Shown: positions 3-11,631 of the stretch, piece by piece
How the letters are laid out: every line of letters begins with the position of its first letter
Position numbering within the stretch: position 1 is the first letter of the stretch
Source of the DNA: an uncultured Anaerolineales bacterium
Lineage (GTDB): Bacteria; Chloroflexota; Anaerolineae; Anaerolineales; VGOW01
DNA length: 29,572 nt
NCBI GenBank assembly: GCA_964470235.1
Contig: CAYYCF010000002.1
Coordinates: 1 to 29,572, forward strand
Direction: 5' to 3'
Made by a program: the position numbers and the translations under genes
Notes under the pieces: generated by a model
The model's input: only the letters and a program-made list of their open reading frames with translations
Databases searched by the model: none
What the model was told of the DNA's origin: nothing

Positions 3-338
3 GTCGTCGTCGTCAACTTCTGGGCCTCGTGGTGCAAACCGTGCGAGCAGGAAGCGCGCGACCTTGAAGCCTTCTATCGCGACTACAAAGATCGCGGCGT
101 CATTCTCATTGGCGTGGATTACGTGGACACCGAAACCGAGGCCCGCGCCTATCTAAAAAAATTCGACATCACTTATCCCAACGGCCCCGACCTCGGCACG
201 CGCATCTCGCAAGCCTACCGCATCAAGGGCGTGCCGGAAACGTACATCATTGACCAGAGCGGCCAACTCGTCACCAACATTATCGGCCCGACGACGAAGG
301 AAGACTTGGCAAAGATTGTCGAACCACTGTTAAAATGA
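3..338 (+). CDS. TlpA/CcmG/ResA-like thiol-disulfide oxidoreductase, 5' part cut by window edge
   Basis: The frame from nt 3 reads VVVVNFWASWCKPCEQEA (thioredoxin WCxxC) and continues into the track ORF (GVPETYIID cis-Pro loop) to TGA 336-338. It heads a ccm gene cluster. Confidence 0.9.
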   Translation, partial: VVVVNFWASWCKPCEQEARDLEAFYRDYKDRGVILIGVDYVDTETEARAYLKKFDITYPNGPDLGTRISQAYRIKGVPETYIIDQSGQLVTNIIGPTTKEDLAKIVEPLLK

Positions 339-388
339 CTCGTGAGGCGTGACCCGTGAGTCATTCACGCATCACGCCTCACGAGTCA
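336..388. repeat. Heptamer-based palindromic element (TCACG-type)
   Basis: Perfect 17-bp inverted repeat TGACTCGTGAGGCGTGA (336-352) / TCACGCCTCACGAGTCA (372-388), built from TCACGnn units. Confidence 0.85.
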
Positions 389-414
389 CGTATCAAACAA
401 ACCACACTTCATTC

Positions 415-906
415 ATGGACCTCGGCTCCCTCCTCCTCTCTCTCGCCCTCCTCATCCTGGTCGCCGCATTCGTGGCGCGGCCTTTGATGGACAAACGCCG
501 CCGCTCGAACGGCCCGGCTCCGGCGGATGAGCTTGTAGCCCGGCGCGAAGCCGTGTTGATCGAATTGCGTGATCTCGACTTTGACCACGGCACCGGCAAA
601 GTGAACGACGACGATTACGCGGCGCAGCGCGCCAGGCTCGTCGCCAACGGCGCGGAAGTTCTGCGCCAATTGGCCGCGCTCAAGCCGCCATCGCCCGCCC
701 GCGCCGGCGAGTCCGGTTCGTACGGGTCTCAGAGCCGCCCCGACATTGACGACGACCTCGAAAAACTGATCGCCGCCCGCAGGCAAGTTCGCCGGCCCGC
801 GCCCGGCGGAAAGTTCTGTCCCAACTGCGGCAACCCCGTTCACCCTGGCGACAAATTCTGCGCCACCTGCGGCCACAACATCACCACCACGCAGGAGGCG
901 GCATGA
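415..906 (+). CDS. Membrane-anchored CcmI/CycH-like N-terminal helical motif plus C-terminal double zinc ribbon
   Basis: ATG 415 begins an N-terminal TM helix. It contains REAVLIELRDLDFDHGTGKVNDDDY and CPNCG...CATCG. The track's extension to 349 is translated palindrome. Confidence 0.7.
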   Translation: MDLGSLLLSLALLILVAAFVARPLMDKRRRSNGPAPADELVARREAVLIELRDLDFDHGTGKVNDDDYAAQRARLVANGAEVLRQLAALKPPSPARAGESGSYGSQSRPDIDDDLEKLIAARRQVRRPAPGGKFCPNCGNPVHPGDKFCATCGHNITTTQEAA

Positions 907-2894
907 AAGGCTTTTTGTTTTCTGGTCCCTTTCCGGAATCAACGGGACACTCTGCACCGCGAAGACGCCAAGAGCGCAAAGTGTTTGAAAAAACTTGGCG
1001 TCCTTCGCGGCTTCGCGGTTCAATTTCTGCCAAAATCCTTGCGCTCTCTGCGGCGGGAATAATCCTCGCCGCTTGCTCACTCGCCGGGGACGTGACCCCG
1101 CCGCCCGGCTTTGAATCGTCAAACGCCAACGCTCCCGCCGACATTAACCCGGTCCCTACGTCTGCCCCGCCGATAGCCCCCGACTCCGGTTTAGGCTACC
1201 CTTCATTCACTCCCTCCGTCGCCGAAGGCGCGTTCCTTTACGCGCAGAACTGCACGCGCTGTCACGGCGCCGGCGGCGCGGGCGACGGCGAACTGGCGAG
1301 CCAGATTCAATTTCCGCTGCCGGACCTCACCACGCCCGACCTGGCGCGCGCTACCACCCCGGCCAACTGGTTCTCGATCATCACGGACGGCAATATTGAC
1401 CGCGTGATGCCGCCGTGGCGCGAAAAGCTGACGGAGACCGAGCGTTGGAATCTCGTCGCTTACCTTTATTCCCTCAGCGCCCCGCAGATTGAAACCGGCC
1501 GGCAAACTTACGCCGCCAGCTGCGCCAACTGTCACGGTGAGAACGGACAGGGCGACGGCAAAGACGCCGCCGCGCCGATCCCCGATTTCACCGATCAGAA
1601 ATACATGGCCTCAAAGTCGGACGATGACTTTTACGCCGCGATCACACAAGGCCTCAACGGCGCGCACGCGTACGCCGACACGTTAACCGACGACGAGCGT
1701 TGGGCCGTTTCCGATCTCGTGCGATCATTTTCCTTCGACACGACCGCGCTGGCCGTCTCGTCCGGCACGGTCACCGGCACGCTCACCAACGGCACGCCAG
1801 GCGCCAGCGCGCCGGACGGTCAAGCGGTCGTCCTGCACCTCTTTGACAATTTTCAGGAGACCGACGCAATCACCACCACCACGCAAAGCGGCGGCGCGTT
1901 CTCATTTGCCGACGTGGCCTTCCCCCCCGGACGCGCGCTCATTCTCAGCATTGATTACGGCGGCGTGGTCTACGTTTCCGATGTCGTGTCGCCTTCGTCG
2001 GGGCAGACGACGTATGATCTGCCGGTGCGGGTTTTCGAGTCCACGTCCGATCCCTCCGCTATTGGCGTGGATCGCATGCACGTTATTTTTGATTTTCAGA
2101 ACGACCTGGTGCAAGTAGCCGAACTATTCATCATCGGCAACAACGGCGACGCCACGTTCGCCGCCCCCCATTCCGGCGCGCCCACGGTGAGCTTCGCCTT
2201 GCCCGCTGGCTACGGCGATCTTGCATTTCAAGACGGCGCCATCGGCGACCGCTATCTGCAAACCGCCGACGGCTTCGCCGATACCGAGCCGATCCGCCCA
2301 GGCCAATCCAGCCAACAGATTCTGGTTTCGTTCACTCTGCCTTACACCGACGCCTTGACCTTCGCGCAGAAAATTTCTTACCCGACGACCGACGTTACCA
2401 TTCTGCTGCCCGATAACGGCGTAGCGCTGAGCGGCAGCGGCATCGGTGATCAGGGCGTGCGCGACGTGCAGGGCGCAAAGTATCACACCTATTCCGCCGC
2501 AGGCCTCCGGGCGAATGACGTATTCGCCTTCGACCTCAAAGGCCAACCGTCGCTGTCGGCCTTGCCTCAAACCGCCGCCGCCCATGCCGCCGCAGTGACA
2601 TTCGATGCGCGGAGCGCCATCGTCGGCGGCATCGCCCTCGCGCTGGCAGTTGCCCTCGTCGTCTATTGGCAAATGCAACGCCGCCAAATATCCGTAGGCG
2701 CGGTTGTCAACCGCGGTAGCCGCGACACCGGCGACGACCGCGATCGTCTGCTCGATCAAATCGCCGCCCTCGACGATCGTTTCGAAGCGGGTGGCATTTC
2801 CGAATCCGAGTATCGCGCCCGGCGGGAGAAGTTGAAGGGAAGATTGAAGAAGCTGGTTCACCACAGAGACACGGAGAACACAGAGAAAGAATAG
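903..2894 (+). CDS. Diheme c-type cytochrome, probable lipoprotein, with beta-rich middle region, C-terminal TM helix and short helical tail
   Basis: Two CxxCH motifs (CTRCH, CANCH) in duplicated cytochrome c domains, a hydrophobic stretch ending in lipobox LAAC, and a TM segment AIVGGIALALAVALVVYW. AGGAGG RBS and ATGA overlap with the upstream gene. Confidence 0.85.
   Translation: MKGFLFSGPFPESTGHSAPRRRQERKVFEKTWRPSRLRGSISAKILALSAAGIILAACSLAGDVTPPPGFESSNANAPADINPVPTSAPPIAPDSGLGYPSFTPSVAEGAFLYAQNCTRCHGAGGAGDGELASQIQFPLPDLTTPDLARATTPANWFSIITDGNIDRVMPPWREKLTETERWNLVAYLYSLSAPQIETGRQTYAASCANCHGENGQGDGKDAAAPIPDFTDQKYMASKSDDDFYAAITQGLNGAHAYADTLTDDERWAVSDLVRSFSFDTTALAVSSGTVTGTLTNGTPGASAPDGQAVVLHLFDNFQETDAITTTTQSGGAFSFADVAFPPGRALILSIDYGGVVYVSDVVSPSSGQTTYDLPVRVFESTSDPSAIGVDRMHVIFDFQNDLVQVAELFIIGNNGDATFAAPHSGAPTVSFALPAGYGDLAFQDGAIGDRYLQTADGFADTEPIRPGQSSQQILVSFTLPYTDALTFAQKISYPTTDVTILLPDNGVALSGSGIGDQGVRDVQGAKYHTYSAAGLRANDVFAFDLKGQPSLSALPQTAAAHAAAVTFDARSAIVGGIALALAVALVVYWQMQRRQISVGAVVNRGSRDTGDDRDRLLDQIAALDDRFEAGGISESEYRARREKLKGRLKKLVHHRDTENTEKE
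956..1019. repeat. ACCGCGAAG...CTTCGCGGT palindromic element lying within the cytochrome reading frame
   Basis: Arms ACCGCGAAG (956-964) / CTTCGCGGT (1011-1019), inner GACGCCAAG / CTTGGCGTC. Same family as 3819-3882. Confidence 0.85.
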
Positions 2895-2929: not shown

Positions 2930-3625
2930 ATGATCGAACTTCGTGCCCTCACAAAATCATTCGGCCTCCGCCCCGTTCTGCGCGGCGTCAATCTCACCGT
3001 GCAGAACGGCGAGTTCGTCGCCCTCATGGGACCCAACGGCGCCGGCAAGACCACACTGCTGCGCATTGTCGCCTCCCTCAGCCGCCCAACCTTTGGCGGC
3101 GTGCGCGTGGGCGGCTTTGATCTGCCCTCGCAAGCGGACGAGGCGCGGCGCGCTATCGGCGTGGTATCGCATTTGCCGCTTCTGTACGGCGACCTCACCG
3201 CCGAAGAAAATTTGTTTTTTTACGGGCGGATGTACGGCGTGCCGGATCTTGCGGCGCGGGTGAGCGAAGTGCTGGAGCAGGTCGGGCTGAGCAAACGGCG
3301 GCGCGATCTGGTGCGGGCGTTTTCGCGCGGCATGACTCAACGGCTGGCCATCGCCCGCGCCATTCTCCATTCGCCCGACATCATGCTGTTCGACGAACCG
3401 TATACCGGACTCGACCAAGACGCCAGCGCCAGGCTCGATACTATTCTAAAGACCGTCGCCGCGCGCGGGCGCACCGTGCTGATGATCTCGCACGATCTGG
3501 CGCACGCGTTGGCGCTGGCGGATCGGGTGGCGATTCTCTCGCGCGGCAAAATTGCCTACGACGCCCCGACGGCGGGCTTGAATCCAAAGCAGTTTGCCGA
3601 TGCCTATAAAGAATATACGCAGTGA
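2930..3625 (+). CDS. ccmA: Heme exporter ABC ATP-binding protein CcmA
   Basis: Walker A GPNGAGKT, signature FSRGM, Walker B LFDEP. Directly upstream of ccmB. Confidence 0.9.
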   Translation: MIELRALTKSFGLRPVLRGVNLTVQNGEFVALMGPNGAGKTTLLRIVASLSRPTFGGVRVGGFDLPSQADEARRAIGVVSHLPLLYGDLTAEENLFFYGRMYGVPDLAARVSEVLEQVGLSKRRRDLVRAFSRGMTQRLAIARAILHSPDIMLFDEPYTGLDQDASARLDTILKTVAARGRTVLMISHDLAHALALADRVAILSRGKIAYDAPTAGLNPKQFADAYKEYTQ

Positions 3626-3672
3626 CAATTCATTATGGGTCCCTGTAACTGCTCACGGCTAGAGCGAGACAA

Positions 3673-3790
3673 GCGCCCTGAGCGAAGCGCCGCGCCGTTT
3701 GCGGCGCGAAGTCGAAGGGTGCGGGTCACTCCCAATTATCGCGTCCTTCAACTGCGCGGCAGAAGGACACTGCCGCTCCGTTCAGGACGC
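3673..3790. repeat. Branched REP/MITE-like palindrome (CCTGAGCGAAG...GTCGAAGG / CCTTC...TCAGG type)
   Basis: Outer stem GCGCCCTGAGCGAAGC / GCTCCGTTCAGGACGC (G-U tolerant), inner GAAGTCGAAGG / CCTTCAACTGC, and two side hairpins. Confidence 0.7.
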
Positions 3791-3818
3791 TTGGTCATGA
3801 GCAGTTACGAATCCCTGA

Positions 3819-3882
3819 ACCGCGAAGGACGCCAAGAACGCAAAGTTTTCACGTGTCTTTGCGCCCTTTGCGTCTTCGCGGT
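3819..3882. repeat. ACCGCGAAG...CTTCGCGGT palindromic element, second copy
   Basis: ACCGCGAAGGACGCCAAGAACGCAAAG...CTTTGCGCCCTTTGCGTCTTCGCGGT, closely matching 956-1019. Confidence 0.85.
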
Positions 3883-3897
3883 GAATCATGCGCGGTG

Positions 3898-4572
3898 ATG
3901 GCAGCTTACTTTCGCGCTACCCTGGCCATCGTTCGCAAAGACCTCGCCGCCGAAATGCGGAGCCGAGAACTGATCAGCGCCATGCTGGTCTTCTCGCTGT
4001 TGGTGGTGTTGATCTTCAATTTCGCTCTCGAACTCGACCGCGCCGCGCGCGAGAACGTGGGCGCGGGCGTGCTGTGGGTAACGTTTACTTTCGCCGGAAC
4101 GCTCGGATTGAACCGGGCCTTCGCCGCCGAAAAGGATCGCGGTTCGCTCGACGGCTTGCTCCTGGCGCCGGTGGATCGCACGGTGATATTTTTCGGCAAG
4201 TTGGTCGGCACGCTGGTATTCATGCTGATCGTCGAAGCCATCGTCATTCCGGTGTTCAGCATCCTTTACGGCATTTCACTTTTCCAGCCTTTGCTGTTGG
4301 TTGTCGTGCTTCTTGGCACGTTAGGCTACGCCGCCGTCGGCACGCTGCTGGCGTCCATGGCGGTGCAGACCCGCACGCGCGACGTGATGCTGCCCATTCT
4401 GCTCTTTCCGGTGACCGTGCCGGTCGTCGTCGCCTCGGTCAAGGCCAGCGTGGGCATCCTCACCGCCGCCGGCTGGAGCGATATTGCGCTGTGGTTCAAC
4501 ATGTTGATCGTGTATGATGTGATCTTCCTCGCCGTGGCATACATGGTATTTGATTACGTGGTCGAGGAATAG
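3898..4572 (+). CDS. ccmB: Heme exporter permease CcmB
   Basis: AIVRKDLAAEMRSRE, FAAEKDRGSLDGLLLAP, LPILLFPVTVPVV and several TM helices. Start trimmed to ATG 3898 because the upstream extension is repeat-derived. Confidence 0.9.
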   Translation: MAAYFRATLAIVRKDLAAEMRSRELISAMLVFSLLVVLIFNFALELDRAARENVGAGVLWVTFTFAGTLGLNRAFAAEKDRGSLDGLLLAPVDRTVIFFGKLVGTLVFMLIVEAIVIPVFSILYGISLFQPLLLVVVLLGTLGYAAVGTLLASMAVQTRTRDVMLPILLFPVTVPVVVASVKASVGILTAAGWSDIALWFNMLIVYDVIFLAVAYMVFDYVVEE

Positions 4573-4586
4573 TACGGAGGCTCAAA

Positions 4587-5402
4587 TTGGAAAACGAAGC
4601 GCCCGTCGGGAACGACACCCCCGCCAACAATTCACAACCGGCCAGCGTTCAACCGCCCACCGAACACAAAGCCGCCGCCATTCTGATCGGCCCGATCATT
4701 GTTCAGTCGTTTAGCACGCCCATCGTCGGCGCGATCATGTTGATCGCCGGACTGTTGATCGGCTACTTTGGCCGGCCGCTGGTCGCGGCGCAACTCGCGC
4801 CTACCCCGACGGCGATCCCCGCCGCAGCGCAGTCGGATAGCCAAGCCGAGTCCCGCGCCCTGCTCATGCAATCCTTGATCGCCAAAACGGATCACTTTCA
4901 AGGCAAAGAGGACGCGCCGGTCGTCATGCTGGAATTCAGCGACTTCCAGTGACCGTACTGCGGGCGATTCGCCGCTGGCGCGGGGCGTCAGATTTATCAA
5001 CAGTACGTTGAAACAGGGTTAGTACGGTTCGGGTATCAGCATTTTGCATTTTTGGGGACGGAGTCGCAATGGGCCGCCGAGGCCAGCGAGTGCGCGTCGG
5101 ATCAAGACGCCTTCTGGGAATATCACGATCTATTGTTCGCAAAACAGTCGGGGGAAAACGGCGGCGCGTTCGGCAAAGAGAATCTCAAACAGTTCGCCGC
5201 AGAACTCAGGTTGAACACCGGCGCCTTCGACGAATGTCTCGACAGCGGCCAGCACGCGGCGGCAGTCAAAAGCCAAACCGAGTATTTGCGATCGCTCGGC
5301 GTGTCCAGCACGCCCACGTTCTTGATCAACGGCCAGCCGGTTATCGGCGCAGAGTCGTTTGAAGCGTTTCAGAAAATCATCGAACAAGAATTAAACAAGT
5401 AA
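4587..5402 (+). CDS. Membrane-anchored DsbA/BdbD-family oxidoreductase with in-frame TGA at the first active-site Cys (candidate selenoprotein, UPYC)
   Basis: Track ORFs 4587-4952 and 5052-5402 share one frame. Read through TGA 4950-4952, the sequence is EFSDFQ*PYCGRF...WAAEASECA...FWEYHDLLF...GVSSTPTFLING, a 271-aa DsbA. GGAGG lies 6 nt before TTG 4587. Confidence 0.85.
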
Positions 5403-5424
5403 GTTGACCTCACAGGAGCCACGC

Positions 5425-6129
5425 ATGCCAACCTCTTCCCCTCGCGCACTGAAAACCCTCAACATCGTCACCGCCGTTATGGCCCTCGTCGCGCTCGGCA
5501 TGGTGTTCTTCTATGCGCCGCGCGAAGCCGTGATGGGCGAAGCCCAACGCATTTTCTATTTTCACGTGTCGTCGGCCTGGGTGAGCTTCGTCGCCTTCTT
5601 CGTCACGCTCGTCGCCGGGATCGCCTTCCTGCGGACGGCCGATCATAAATGGGATCGGGTGGCGTTGTCGTCGGTCGAGGTAGGGATGACCTTTGCCATG
5701 ATGACACTGCTCAGCGGCATGTTGTGGGCCCGCCCGATCTGGAATGCCTGGTGGACGTGGGACCCGCGCCTGACCACGTTCAGCATTCTGCTGTTGATCT
5801 ACTTTGCCTATCTCATGCTAAGGGAAGGCATCGAAGACCCCGACCGCCGCGCCCGATTCGCCTCGGTGTACGGCATCGTCGGCTTCATCAGCGTGCCGAT
5901 TACCTTTTTCTCGATTCGCTTCTGGCGGACGATTCATCCGGTGGTCATCGGCTCCGGCGACCCCTCGGCCAAAGGCTCCTTCAACATGGAGCCGCAGATG
6001 CTGCAGACGTTGTTGTTCAGCATCGCCTTCTTCACCGTGCTGTACGCCACGCTGATGTGGCACCGCCTGCGGTTGGAGAGCTTCGCCGGTTACGTCGAGC
6101 AACTCAAGGCCAAGTTCACTTCAGCCTAA
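5425..6129 (+). CDS. ccmC: Heme exporter / cytochrome c biogenesis protein CcmC
   Basis: RIFYFHV, Trp-rich WARPIWNAWWTWDPRLT, and FWRTIHP. AGGAG RBS before ATG 5425. Confidence 0.92.
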   Translation: MPTSSPRALKTLNIVTAVMALVALGMVFFYAPREAVMGEAQRIFYFHVSSAWVSFVAFFVTLVAGIAFLRTADHKWDRVALSSVEVGMTFAMMTLLSGMLWARPIWNAWWTWDPRLTTFSILLLIYFAYLMLREGIEDPDRRARFASVYGIVGFISVPITFFSIRFWRTIHPVVIGSGDPSAKGSFNMEPQMLQTLLFSIAFFTVLYATLMWHRLRLESFAGYVEQLKAKFTSA

Positions 6130-6210: not shown

Positions 6211-6384
6211 ATGCTACTAGCCCCCTTTTTCCAAACTCCCGACACGTCCGGCTACATGATCGCCGGATACATTGTCTTTGTTTCATTCCCGATTCTGTTT
6301 ATTGTCAGCCTGTTTTTCCGCCGAAGGAATCTTGAAAAAGACGAAGCGAACATCAAGAGCTTGAGCGAAGACGAAGCGAAATAA
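6211..6384 (+). CDS. CcmD-like small single-TM protein (57 aa), absent from the ORF track
   Basis: My translation is MLLAPFFQTPDTSGYMIAGYIVFVSFPILFIVSLFFRRRNLEKDEANIKSLSEDEAK*: one TM helix then a basic/charged tail, located right after ccmC as ccmD normally is. Confidence 0.75.
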   Translation: MLLAPFFQTPDTSGYMIAGYIVFVSFPILFIVSLFFRRRNLEKDEANIKSLSEDEAK

Positions 6385-7081: not shown

Positions 7082-8554
7082 ATGGTTGCTCCCCTCACCG
7101 TCGCCGACGAACGCGGCTTGCGAGGCCACAGCCTCGACACGCAACTGCGGCAAGTGTTTTACGGCCTGCCACCGGAAAAAGTGAGAGAAATGGCCGGGCA
7201 AGTGACGGTCGAAGCCGGAAGGCGGCGGCTGGTGTACGTCCGCGAGGGGAAGGAAGAAGTGATTAATATTCTTCTGCGCCCCATCGTCGTCATGCGCGAT
7301 CAAGCCACCTACTTTCACGTCGCTTCGCTCGCTCTGCTCAACGCCCTCAAACGCCTGCCCGATCTCTACTTGCATGACTTCGACGTGCGCGAAGCTATCC
7401 CGCTCACGCCCGATGAAGAGAAATGGCTGTTGGAAAACTGGCGCAAGAGTCACCACGAGAACAACCCGGTGTTTGGCCGCCTGGATGCGGTGGTGGATTT
7501 TACGACCGCGATGTGGAAGGAGTCGCTGAAGTTCGTCGAGCCGAACTTGTCGGGGATTGGCGGCATACATCTAATCCCAAACTGCGATCAAGTGCTGGCC
7601 GACGTGGTGATCCCCATGCTGGAGGAGGCCGCCCCCGATTTGCAGCTCGAACCCGGCCCCGACCTGCGTGATATGTTCCTGCAAGAAATGACGGATCACC
7701 TGGAAGCCATTGGCCGGGCGGGCGGCACGATCTGCTTCATCGATCCGAAATATGCCGAAGACGGAATCGCCGAACTCGATCCCTTGATCGAATACTTCCA
7801 CCAAACTCAACCGGAGACAAAAATCGTCCACGCCGATCCGTCCGAGTTGTACGTGCGCAGCGGCGACGTGTGGTACGAGGACACCAAAGTGGATTTGGGC
7901 TACCGCGATTACGAGGTGCGCGACCTGATCGAGATGGAGAAAGTGGAGGGGCTGGACATCAAGCCGATGAAGATTCTCTTCCGCGAGAACCGGATCGTGT
8001 CCTCGCTGGTCGGCGACTTTGACCACAAATCCACGTGGGAAGTGCTGACCGACCCGCGCTTCACCGAAAAATACTTCACCGCCGAAGACCGCCATTATTT
8101 CAAACGGCACGTCCTCTGGACCCGCACGATGAGGGAGCGCCGCACTACCGACCCCGAAGGCGAAACGATAGACTTGCTCGACTTCACTCGCAGGAATCAA
8201 GACATTCTGGTGATCAAACCCAATCGATCTTACGGCGGCGACCGTGTTCTGCTCGGACCCTCGGTGAGCGAGGGTGAGTGGGGGGCCGCTATCGAGGAGT
8301 CGTTGTCGGGCGAGGAATCGTGGGTGGTTCAGCGGTTGGCGCGCATCAGCGTCAACGAGTTTCCGGTGGTCGCGCCCGACGGCTCCGTATCCACCGAACC
8401 GTTTTATACCGTGATGGGTTTTGCGCCCACCAAGTACGGCGTGGCCGTGCTGGGGCGCGCCTCGCAAAAGCAAGTGGTCAACGTGGCTCAGCGCGGCGGC
8501 ATGTGTTCGGTCCTCATCGGGCGGCACCACAAGGCGTTGCACGGGCCAAGATGA
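7082..8554 (+). CDS. Circularly permuted ATP-grasp / glutathionylspermidine synthase-like amidoligase
   Basis: FGRLDAV, LKFVEPNLSGIGG (E-x-N), LVIKPNRSYGG and WVVQR occur in the permuted order (RxD and ExN before the KP...GG motif). Confidence 0.7.
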   Translation: MVAPLTVADERGLRGHSLDTQLRQVFYGLPPEKVREMAGQVTVEAGRRRLVYVREGKEEVINILLRPIVVMRDQATYFHVASLALLNALKRLPDLYLHDFDVREAIPLTPDEEKWLLENWRKSHHENNPVFGRLDAVVDFTTAMWKESLKFVEPNLSGIGGIHLIPNCDQVLADVVIPMLEEAAPDLQLEPGPDLRDMFLQEMTDHLEAIGRAGGTICFIDPKYAEDGIAELDPLIEYFHQTQPETKIVHADPSELYVRSGDVWYEDTKVDLGYRDYEVRDLIEMEKVEGLDIKPMKILFRENRIVSSLVGDFDHKSTWEVLTDPRFTEKYFTAEDRHYFKRHVLWTRTMRERRTTDPEGETIDLLDFTRRNQDILVIKPNRSYGGDRVLLGPSVSEGEWGAAIEESLSGEESWVVQRLARISVNEFPVVAPDGSVSTEPFYTVMGFAPTKYGVAVLGRASQKQVVNVAQRGGMCSVLIGRHHKALHGPR

Positions 8555-8627
8555 ATGATGAGTGATGAATGCGGAACGATGAATATCTATTCCGCATTCA
8601 TCATTCCGCATTCATCATTCCACATTC
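8550..8627. repeat. Heptamer-based palindromic element (GATGAAT/ATTCATC)
   Basis: TGATGAATGCGGAA (8563-8576) has its reverse complement TTCCGCATTCATCA twice in tandem (8590-8603, 8604-8617). Confidence 0.85.
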
Positions 8628-8631
8628 GCAC

Positions 8632-9969
8632 ATGCTCGGCGAATCACGAATCAAATCCCTGCTGGAAACAGCCCTGTCGCTTTCCACCGCCGACGAGACT
8701 GAAGTCTCGCTCACGGCAGTGGACGACGCCACCACGCGCTTCGACAACAACGCCATTCATCAGAACGTCGCCGAGACCGACGCCGTGCTCGAAGTGCGCG
8801 CCGTCATCGGGCGGCGCGTTGGCACGGCCAGCACCAACCATTTTGCGCCGGACTCTTTGGCGCGGGTGGTCGAAATGGCAGGCGAGGCCGCGCGCTATCA
8901 ACCGGAAAGCGAAGACTTCGTCGGTCTGCCGGAACCACGCCCGATCCAAAGAGTCAATTCATTCGACGAGGCCGTGGCCGCCGCCTCGCGGTCGCCCGAA
9001 CTTCGGGCGCGCGTGGTCAGCGGACTCTGCCAGGCCGCCGCCGGCGCGTCTGCCCTCGCCGCCGGGGCCTACGCCACCGCCGCCGCAGAGACCGCTATCG
9101 CCAATTCGCGCGGCGTGTGGGCGTATCATCCCTCCACATCGGTAGAACTGACTTTGGTCGTCGCTTGCGAAGATGGATCGGGGTACACGCACGGCACGTC
9201 GTGGCGATTGGATCGGGTTGACACGGAGGCGCTTGGCGCAGAGGCGATCCAACGCGCGCTGGCCTCTCGCCATCCGCGCCGCCTCCCGCCGGGCGAGTAT
9301 CCGGTCATCCTCGAGCCGTATGCCGTGGTGGACATCGTCGAACAGTTGGCGGCCGAAGGCATGGGCGCGCTGGCCGTGCAAGAGGGACGCAGTTGGATGA
9401 ACGGGCGAATGGGCAAGCGGACGCTCTCGCCGTTGATTTCAATTTGGGATGACGGCCTCGATCTCGAAGGCGAACCGCAACCGTTTGATTGCGAAGGCGT
9501 TCCGAAAGAGCGCGTGGACATTGTGAACGCCGGTGTGCCGACCGCGCCCGTGTACGACACCCACACCGCCGCCCGCGAACCTGGGCAACTCTCCACCGGG
9601 CACGCGCAGCCGATGGACGAAGACTGGGACGGCCCGATGCCGGGCAATTTGCATTTGGCTCCCGGCGACTCGTCGGTGCAAGAAATGATCAGCGCCACGC
9701 GGCGCGGGTTGTACATCACGCGCTTCTGGTACACCAACATCGTGGCCGACCGCGATTGCGTGCTCACCGGCACCACGCGCGATGCCGCATTCTTGATCGA
9801 GCGCGGCGAGATCGTCTGCCCGGTGCAGGCCTCGCGCTTCACACAAGGATTGATCCCGGCGCTTAAAAACGTCGCCGCCGTCGGTCGCGAGTCGCGGCCC
9901 ATTGGCGGCTTCTACGGCAGTCACCGATTACCGGCGGTGAAGTTAGAGAGCTTCAGGTTTACGGGGTAA
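8632..9969 (+). CDS. TldD/PmbA family protein, PmbA/TldE-type
   Basis: TRFDNNAIHQNV, PPGEYPVILEP, PFDCEGVP, RGLYITRFWY and TGTTRD. No HExxxH is visible. Start trimmed to ATG 8632. Confidence 0.85.
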   Translation: MLGESRIKSLLETALSLSTADETEVSLTAVDDATTRFDNNAIHQNVAETDAVLEVRAVIGRRVGTASTNHFAPDSLARVVEMAGEAARYQPESEDFVGLPEPRPIQRVNSFDEAVAAASRSPELRARVVSGLCQAAAGASALAAGAYATAAAETAIANSRGVWAYHPSTSVELTLVVACEDGSGYTHGTSWRLDRVDTEALGAEAIQRALASRHPRRLPPGEYPVILEPYAVVDIVEQLAAEGMGALAVQEGRSWMNGRMGKRTLSPLISIWDDGLDLEGEPQPFDCEGVPKERVDIVNAGVPTAPVYDTHTAAREPGQLSTGHAQPMDEDWDGPMPGNLHLAPGDSSVQEMISATRRGLYITRFWYTNIVADRDCVLTGTTRDAAFLIERGEIVCPVQASRFTQGLIPALKNVAAVGRESRPIGGFYGSHRLPAVKLESFRFTG

Positions 9970-10756: not shown

Positions 10757-10858
10757 ATCCCAAATCCCAAGCCCCAAATCCCAAGCGCGAGCGCCTTTCC
10801 GAAAACTCGCACCTTCGAGATTTGACGTTTGGGATTTGGAAGTTGGGATTTGGGATTT
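10755..10858. repeat. Heptamer palindromic element (AAATCCC/GGGATTT)
   Basis: Tandem AAATCCC-like units at 10755-10785 mirrored by GGGATTT units at 10828-10858. Confidence 0.85.
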
Positions 10859-10863
10859 TTTCT

Positions 10864-11631
10864 ATGCGCCTCCACTACACCCTCCACTCTCCCCAACTTC
10901 AAAACACCGTCGTCCTCTTGCACGGCATGGGGTCGTGCGGAGAGGATTGGGCATTGCAGATTCCGGCGCTGGCAGAGCATTACCGCGTGGTCACGCCCGA
11001 GATGCGCGGGCACGGCCAGAGCGACAAGCCGCCCGGCCCTTACAGTATCGCGCACATGGCCGACGATGTCATCGAATTGATGGACGAGTTGAAAATTGAA
11101 TCGGCGCACGTGGCCGGTCTTTCGATGGGCGGGTGCATCGCGTTGCAGCTCGCCATTGCCCATGCGAATCGAGTCCGCAGCGCCGTGATCGTCAACAGTT
11201 TTGCCAAAGCCCGCCCGGCCGGGTGGCGCGGCGTTCTCCGCTTCCTCAACCGCATTTGGTCGTTGAACTTCGGCACAATGGAAGATGTGGCCGAGCCGGT
11301 CGCCCGTTCCATGTTCCCGAAACCGGAGCAGGCTGAACTGCGCCGTATTGCGCTGGAGCGCATAGCCGGCAACCCCAAGGAACAGTATCGCTCCATCTTG
11401 AGCGCCGTCGTGCGGTTCAACGCCCTGCCCCATCTCAATCAAATTAAATGCCAGGTGCTGATCGTCGCCGGAGAGCGCGATCTCACCGTGCCACTGCCGC
11501 CCAAACGGGAGCTGCATCGCAAACTCCCAGGCTCCGAATTTGTCCTCATCTCCGATTCCGGCCACGCCACGCCGGTAGACCAGCCGGAGAAATTCAACGA
11601 GGCTTTGCTGGACTTCATTGGCCGTAATTAA
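10864..11631 (+). CDS. Alpha/beta hydrolase (3-oxoadipate enol-lactonase-like fold)
   Basis: LLHGMG, RGHGQS, nucleophile elbow GLSMGG, GERD acid and SGH catalytic His. Start trimmed to ATG 10864. Confidence 0.88.
   Translation: MRLHYTLHSPQLQNTVVLLHGMGSCGEDWALQIPALAEHYRVVTPEMRGHGQSDKPPGPYSIAHMADDVIELMDELKIESAHVAGLSMGGCIALQLAIAHANRVRSAVIVNSFAKARPAGWRGVLRFLNRIWSLNFGTMEDVAEPVARSMFPKPEQAELRRIALERIAGNPKEQYRSILSAVVRFNALPHLNQIKCQVLIVAGERDLTVPLPPKRELHRKLPGSEFVLISDSGHATPVDQPEKFNEALLDFIGRN

Follow-up and report, generated by a model that had tools for sequence, protein, structure and literature searches.

We analyzed a stretch of 29,572 nucleotides from an uncultured Anaerolineales bacterium (contig CAYYCF010000002.1; this whole stretch is called the window below), and in particular a dsbA-like gene at 4587-5402, which lies among genes for cytochrome c maturation (Ccm) and whose reading frame contains a TGA codon. 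Judging by its sequence, the gene is intact and is read through at the UGA. The prediction that UGA122 encodes selenocysteine (Sec) in a membrane-anchored disulfide enzyme of the DsbA type is strongly supported. A one-step nonsense mutation would be possible in any single sequence, and therefore the case that this TGA reflects more than chance rests on comparison with other sequences. The gene has the following features, all on the forward strand.

4587-5402 (+): dsbA-like gene predicted to encode a selenoprotein, 271 codons, with a TTG start and a TAA stop at 5400-5402
4576-4580 (+): Shine-Dalgarno sequence GGAGG, 6 nucleotides (nt) ahead of the TTG start; the relative L247 has the same TTG start
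4707-4763 (+): N-terminal transmembrane anchor, residues 41-59, the top hydrophobic 19-residue stretch (Kyte-Doolittle mean 1.94)
4950-4952 (+): in-frame UGA, predicted selenocysteine, codon 122, the first residue of the U-P-Y-C redox motif
4959-4961 (+): resolving Cys125 (TGC) of U-P-Y-C, invariant in the alignment
4975-4991 (+): hairpin CUGGCGC-GGG-GCGUCAG, resembling a selenocysteine insertion sequence (SECIS), with a 7-bp stem that includes one G-U pair, -9.9 kcal/mol
5310-5315 (+): Thr242-Pro243 of the cis-Pro loop S-T-P-T-F, invariant in the family

The TGA at 4950-4952, in the context EFSDFQ-TGA-PYCGRF, is the sole in-frame stop within the open reading frame (ORF). When U is replaced by cysteine (Cys), the protein matches the Pfam models PF13462 (Thioredoxin_4; E 7e-36, model positions 3-164 of 165) and PF01323 (DSBA; E 2.5e-15), and a BdbD/MdbA-type Thioredoxin_4/DSBA domain spans residues ~100-266. 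By sequence, the nearest solved structures are actinobacterial DsbA (4pwp/4pwo, E 2e-22) and Bacillus BdbD (3eu3, E 4e-20). U122 aligns to C122, which is invariant in 21 Cys homologues, as are the cis-Pro loop and two further Cys. The anchor lies in a wider hydrophobic run (~residues 29-62), and the anchor region is conserved in the subfamily. Since there is no Cys in residues 1-121, we predict a membrane-anchored protein and not a lipoprotein. A first-pass annotation of this DNA had described a single in-frame TGA on the first Cys of a DsbA motif, intact flanks with ribosome binding site, start, stop and cis-Pro loop, a membrane anchor, and a position between ccmB and ccmC in the operon of a Cys-only ResA/TlpA-like gene; all of these hold. 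We also scanned every TGA in the window that is flanked by 60 or more open codons on each side, and only that at 4950 has a redox-motif context, so that no other selenoprotein-like TGA was found.

Close relatives were found by a search with the CcmC protein of the window, and their matching proteins are 91-95% identical. Two of them, L247 (NCBI JBFOMP010004200.1) and L252 (an ENA contig from Hainich H51 groundwater), are independent assemblies from groundwater that are syntenic with the window, with ~92-94% nucleotide identity, the same gene order and CcmC proteins that are ~95% identical. In each of them, the codon in question is likewise TGA. A comparison of the window with L247 over the 149 codons after the TGA gives 24.5 synonymous and 9.5 non-synonymous differences, i.e., a ratio of non-synonymous to synonymous rates (dN/dS) of 0.088. 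For the 90 codons upstream of the TGA, dN/dS is 0.10, and constraint is similar in the two parts. On this comparison, we take the TGA to be neither an error nor a private nonsense mutation.

Public gene calls cut the selenoprotein gene into two fragments in both relatives (L247 2306-3118, L252 1496-2487): an N-terminal piece of 120 or 128 amino acids that has no Pfam match, and a C-terminal DSBA piece of 126 amino acids. These two-piece calls are a systematic misannotation of the family.

We scanned genome and metagenome collections at the DNA level for the pattern F-x-D-[FY]-[QK]-TGA-P-[YF]-C, which occurs in at least 120 contigs of each. Based on the information content of the pattern, we estimate that ~0.5 matches would be expected by chance in the genome collection. 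Among the pattern matches listed, 239 of 242 are true homologues, in which the frame is open before and after the TGA and continues for a median of 148 codons beyond it. The same subfamily as the window protein accounts for 28 of the 239 listed homologues; these are 47-61% identical to it (all but one at least 49%), anchor included. The listed matches include Chloroflexi, Deltaproteobacteria/Desulfobacterota, Acidobacteria, Rokubacteria, Nitrospirota and Myxococcota, with the motif found largely in Deltaproteobacteria/Desulfobacterota, Acidobacteria and Chloroflexi.

Homologues with Cys number ~7,000, and the best of them are no closer to the window protein than the 28 Sec-form subfamily members. 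The Cys paralogs inside the fetched loci are too distant to serve as a control, and we took three other Cys forms (P0006, P0007 and P0014) instead. One of these, P0006, is an ortholog that is syntenic with the window gene and has TGC at the TGA codon. In a rough neighbor-joining tree, Sec forms are mixed with Cys forms, and parsimony counts at least 10 switches between the two. Thus, both of the patterns that the first-pass annotation had proposed to look for among orthologs, namely alternation of TGA with Cys codons (TGC in P0006, TGA in L247 and L252) and purifying selection downstream of the TGA, are observed.

Some loci contain more than one copy of the gene. Among L061 and L157 (each with two pattern matches), L183, L027, L110 and L151, some carry paired TGA-containing dsbA-like paralogs within a few kb, and others have one Sec copy beside one Cys copy. 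The paired copies suggest local duplication of Sec-DsbA genes.

We aligned 54 nt, starting at the UGA, from the window and the 28 Sec orthologs (29 sequences), in which the SECIS-like hairpin occupies columns 26-42 and its GGG apical loop begins 29 nt after the UGA. This alignment shows a predicted hairpin that is conserved after the UGA with compensatory changes. Its consensus in the Sec forms is CUGRCG(C)-GGG-(N)CGYCAG; the six core base pairs are intact in 27 of the 29 sequences, and 90.6% of the hairpin cells are paired. Compensatory changes on both sides are found at two pairs. Pair 29:39 is A-U in 14 sequences, G-C in 11, G-U in three and mismatched in one, and pair 27:41 switches once from U-A to A-U. 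The observed covariation was reached in 0 of 500 shuffles, and the pairing collapses when the 3' partner is slid. The covarying positions combine the second base of a Gly/Asp codon, where changes are non-synonymous, with a synonymous third base of an Arg codon (Fisher p 1e-4, uncorrected for phylogeny).

Conservation of the hairpin is also visible at the level of single positions. Third-codon positions 27, 30, 33 and 42, which lie within the hairpin, are 93-100% conserved, versus 61% on average elsewhere. Every one of the 29 sequences has G as its first loop base (column 33), and the loop is mostly GGG, with the variants GTG, GTT and GGC. In the window, L247 and L252, the stem is identical and the third loop base varies (GGG, GGA and GGC, respectively). 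The peptide encoded by the hairpin, [GD]-A-[GWL]-R-Q-[IL], is present in 26 of 28 Sec forms versus 7 of 119 Cys forms (p 3e-20), and the syntenic Cys ortholog P0006 does not have the hairpin. When 221 Sec forms drawn from all subfamilies are compared to synonymous recodings, an excess of structure is seen in the 51 nt that follow the UGA, with a mean z of -1.40 versus -0.26 for a control region further downstream (Wilcoxon p 3.5e-17).

A different situation is found in the Cys form P0007 (TGC; L244 6001-6858), which keeps the exact hairpin CTGGCGCGGGTCGCCAG at the same distance. From its sequence, this gene appears to be a recent Sec-to-Cys replacement with a 'fossil' SECIS.

The first-pass annotation had suggested that the sequence after the TGA could fold into a hairpin compatible with a bacterial SECIS. 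A conserved hairpin does follow the TGA, but it is the one at 4975-4991, and neither of the two hairpins that were then put forward is the conserved element. Those hairpins, GGCG-ATT-CGCC (4963-4973) and CGCC-GCT-GGCG (4970-4980), are present in the window; however, in the 29 Sec sequences, their observed pairing was reached in 98/500 and 253/500 shuffles, respectively. It was also considered then that the TGA might be private to this genome and followed by no conserved hairpin. We find TGA at this codon in at least 239 homologues, and the hairpin at 4975-4991 is conserved among the Sec forms of the subfamily.

It is important to point out several results that weigh against recoding as Sec. 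The window's own fold after the UGA is not significant when compared to synonymous recodings (z -0.95) or to dinucleotide shuffles (z -1.4 and -1.6), and therefore the structural argument rests on covariation and not on energy. No Rfam SECIS family matches at its gathering threshold, nor does any match at E-values up to 10 within 4930-5030. Gene, tRNA and Rfam scans of the 29.6-kb window did not find selA, selB, selC, selD or tRNA-Sec, and the tRNA and Rfam scans gave no match of any kind. As background to the Rfam result, the bacterial SECIS families in Rfam are lineage- and gene-specific. The model used by bSECISearch allows for 16-37 nt between UGA and loop, and the 29-nt spacing seen here falls inside this range. 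In comparison to bacterial SECIS elements generally (the E. coli fdhF type and the bSECIS model), the hairpin is similar in that it lies in the coding region directly 3' of the UGA and has a small loop that begins with G. It differs from them in its short stem (6-7 bp) and the missing Rfam match, and binding by SelB is a prediction.

Selenoproteins of this general type have been described before. In 2005, Zhang, Fomenko & Gladyshev reported UxxC DsbA-like (nine sequences) and DsbG-like (COG1651) selenoproteins from the Sargasso Sea, and predicted SECIS elements for them with a G in the apical loop (PMC1088965). DsbA-/DsbG-like selenoproteins are also found in bacterial surveys of 2006 (PMC1794560) and 2016 (41 organisms, PMC5029168) and are listed in a 2026 review (PMC13188914). 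Selenoproteins of Chloroflexi were on record by 2006 (PMC1794560). The window protein shares with the published DsbA-/DsbG-like proteins a thioredoxin-fold DSBA-type domain, Sec in place of the first Cys of CxxC, abundant Cys homologues, an in-frame hairpin with an apical G after the UGA, and an occurrence in Deltaproteobacteria, Acidobacteria and Chloroflexi. There are differences in classification: the published 'DsbA-like form 1' is filed under PF01323/COG2761, whereas the best model for the window protein is PF13462. Its homologues carry the JGI label 'protein-disulfide isomerase', which we read as placing it nearer to the DsbG-like COG1651.

Among NCBIfam models, the best match is NF041057 (Rcas_1661 thioredoxin-like (seleno)lipoprotein; E 1e-45, residues 69-267), where we take 'Rcas' to stand for Roseiflexus castenholzii, a member of the Chloroflexi. 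However, the score of 156 bits is below the cutoff of 190 bits, and the window protein is anchored by a transmembrane segment and does not have a lipobox Cys. We consider it, from these features, to be a relative of NF041057 and not a member. The Sec-DsbA is a member of a family of selenoproteins that has been known since 2005; what is unusual is only where it lies, in a ccm operon. Our searches of a limited literature library turned up no bacterial ccm operon described as containing a selenoprotein. The novelty suggested in the first-pass annotation is limited, given the UxxC DsbA-/DsbG-like proteins known since 2005 and the curated NF041057.

Comparison with the solved oxidases is informative about a possible function. 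Residues ~99-271 align with BdbD (3eu3) and with DsbA/MdbA-type proteins (4pwo, 4pwp), which share the context E-F-S-D-F-x-C-P-[FY]-C and the cis-Pro loop. Unlike the window protein, these oxidases use Cys and not Sec, and their partners BdbC and VKOR have no counterpart in the window. Moreover, the host of BdbD uses System II, whereas the window operon is of System I (ccmABC...). BdbD oxidizes the thiols of apocytochrome c and ResA re-reduces them, a logic that matches the pairing of genes in the window operon. The other genes of this operon are as follows.

3-338 (+): 3' part of a ResA/TlpA/DsbE-like thioredoxin gene, Cys-only (W-C-K-P-C), in the CcmG role; cut by the start of the window
349-906 (+): zinc-ribbon protein, conserved in these operons
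903-2894 (+): c-type cytochrome, 663 amino acids, with two Cytochrome_CBB3/Cytochrom_C domains
2930-3625 (+): ccmA, heme ABC exporter ATPase (TIGR01189, 139.9 bits versus a cutoff of 131.6 bits)
3853-4572 (+): ccmB; homology to relatives starts near 3894
5425-6129 (+): ccmC, with an ATG at 5425 and an ORF that is open from a TTG at 5404
6211-6384 (+): ORF of 57 amino acids with a single transmembrane segment, located where ccmD is expected; assigned from its position, with no family match

The ResA/TlpA-like gene matches ResA NF002854 (E 8e-27), and a small gene of 54-62 amino acids follows ccmC in relatives as well. The dsbA-like gene starts 14 nt after the ccmB stop and ends 1-22 nt before the ccmC start. 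This tight packing makes it very probable that the gene is co-transcribed with ccmABCD. The 663-amino-acid cytochrome is a possible client of the DsbA-like enzyme. A full operon is seen in L254, in the order ccmE-ccmF-ccmH-tlpA-zinc ribbon-cytochrome c-ccmA-ccmB-ccmC. In three groundwater contigs (L241-243), the order is ccmH-tlpA-zinc ribbon-cytochrome c-ccmA-ccmB-dsbA(Cys)-ccmC-small ORF, and the Cys protein is P0006. This protein is 59% identical to the window protein in the local alignment of the search and ~54% identical by tblastn over nearly the full length, and the two have an N-terminal indel in common. The order ccmB-dsbA-ccmC is therefore found in two diverged lineages, namely the window with L247 and L252 (Sec) and L241-243 (Cys), between which CcmC is ~69% identical.

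Our best overall explanation, which we regard as probable, is that the gene encodes an anchored, extracytoplasmic oxidoreductase of the Gram-positive DsbA type (BdbD/MdbA) with a recoded Sec in a U-P-Y-C active site, and that it is, as a best guess, a partner of Ccm. In this mechanism, UGA122 would be recoded as Sec in response to the in-frame mRNA hairpin at 4975-4991, which SelB carrying Sec-tRNA(Sec) would bind. The N-terminal helix would hold the protein in the membrane with its catalytic domain facing outward, and the attack in thiol-disulfide or selenenylsulfide exchange would come from Sec122. Based on gene position and homology, our best guess is that the enzyme would act as an oxidizing or thiol-exchange partner for the thiols of apocytochrome CxxCH and of CcmH. 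The ResA/TlpA-like protein encoded upstream would re-reduce those thiols, in parallel to the roles of BdbD and ResA in Bacillus. A specific function in Ccm is plausible, but we propose it tentatively. A narrower proposal, that of a dedicated, co-transcribed Ccm accessory factor in groundwater Chloroflexota that sets the redox state of apocytochrome CxxCH/CcmH and makes cytochrome c output dependent on selenium, seems rather unlikely to be correct in full.

The main functional rival holds that the selenoprotein is a general extracytoplasmic catalyst of oxidative folding (BdbD/MdbA-like) that merely happens to lie between ccmB and ccmC in a few lineages; we see this as a real possibility that falls short of being probable. 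General oxidases are the closest solved relatives, and a number of results speak for this rival and against a role in Ccm. Four related ccm operons (L249, L250, L253 and L254; CcmC 71-76% identical) have no dsbA-like gene and run from ccmB straight into ccmC. Using tblastn with the window's CcmB and CcmC, we found ccmB/ccmC near none of the 239 listed Sec-form loci; ccm genes adjoin none of the 28 listed members of the subfamily. The Cys forms P0007 and P0014 stand alone, with no ccm linkage, and clustering of the subfamily loci gave no conserved neighbor. Finally, a DsbB, VKOR or CcdA partner is absent from the window. A general linkage of the subfamily to Ccm is rejected, given the 239 listed loci without ccmB/ccmC and the lack of a conserved neighbor.

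However, the insertion site of the gene is identical in two diverged lineages (~54% DsbA and ~69% CcmC identity), with tight spacing, and the N-terminal indel is common to the window protein and the ccm-linked Cys clade. The same insertion site and common indel suggest that the linkage has been retained and is not a transient accident. Since four related ccm operons do not have the gene and most subfamily members are not linked to ccm, we consider it, on this genomic comparison, to be an accessory insertion in some Chloroflexi ccm operons and not a core Ccm component. The first-pass annotation had stated that the enzyme controls the redox state of apocytochromes. This was an overstatement for a gene that is an accessory insertion in only two lineages of Chloroflexi ccm operons, which are conserved apart from it, and whose subfamily is mostly not linked to ccm, and we infer such a role only in the conditional sense given above.

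It could also be supposed that the Sec enzyme works on the reducing or isomerizing side of Ccm, i.e., as a CcmG-like reductase of apocytochrome or CcmH and not as an oxidase. Such a role is chemically possible, since the reduction of selenenylsulfides is thermodynamically more difficult and Sec is the better nucleophile, and no gene for a DsbB or VKOR re-oxidant is nearby. We nonetheless judge it improbable, given that the operon already encodes a dedicated ResA/TlpA-like reductase and CcmH, and that the homology is to the oxidase-type proteins DsbA, BdbD and MdbA and not to CcmG or ResA.

Other explanations concern the UGA itself. Readthrough might occur without Sec, through near-cognate insertion of Trp or Cys or through a reassigned code, and the window has no gene of the Sec machinery. 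However, TGA is the ordinary stop of 11 of the 28 Pfam-supported genes in the window, which implies the standard genetic code, and the UGA here falls exactly at the redox Cys. The covarying hairpin with its G-rich apical loop corresponds to the bacterial Sec signature of PMC1088965, and the taxa that bear the motif belong largely to phyla with selenoproteins reported in PMC1794560. We therefore view readthrough without Sec as very improbable. Least probable of all, and strongly disfavored, is the idea that the TGA is a nonsense mutation or a sequencing or assembly error in a dead, split or pseudogenized gene; although a single substitution turns TGC or TGT into TGA and gene callers split the L247 and L252 copies, three independent assemblies share the TGA, dN/dS is 0.088 downstream of it, the 33 codons from the TGA to the next possible start are conserved at the protein level in 28 orthologs, and hundreds of homologues have TGA at the same codon.

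Several further features of the window were observed. A highly structured insert of 268 nt (RNA minimum free energy -127 kcal/mol) lies at 3626-3893, between ccmA and ccmB, and is absent from L247 and L252, where these two genes abut. An inverted partial copy of the insert's 3' hairpin is found at 955-1010. The insert looks like an element of the MITE (miniature inverted-repeat transposable element) or REP (repetitive extragenic palindromic) kind. Further intergenic spacers vary among strains, e.g., near 5403-5424 and 10781-10864. An RtcB RNA ligase of 822 amino acids, encoded at 23898-26366 (+), contains an intein, part of which resembles an HNH endonuclease (Pfam RtcB, Intein_splicing and HNH_3). 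An ORF of 490 amino acids at 7082-8554 (+) is directly upstream of a PmbA/TldD-family gene at 8569-9969, which is the position expected for a TldD partner; this ORF is conserved in L247 and has no Pfam or NCBIfam match at E 0.001 or better. A gene pair encoding a CrcB fluoride channel and a DUF190 protein is located at 20041-20770 (-), and no fluoride riboswitch was found there at the Rfam gathering threshold.

For annotation, our results indicate that the gene at 4587-5402 is best called as one selenoprotein of 271 residues. With good support, they add an exported enzyme of the DsbA type to the cases of Sec/Cys exchange, and the informative comparisons for it are the syntenic Cys ortholog that has no hairpin, the Cys form P0007 that has one, and the tree in which Sec and Cys forms are interleaved. 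If the enzyme were a dedicated Ccm factor, the operon would represent the first case of a selenoprotein taking part in a Ccm system. If the linkage to ccm is functional, the supply of selenium would be tied to cytochrome c biogenesis in subsurface Chloroflexota, a consequence of modest scope.

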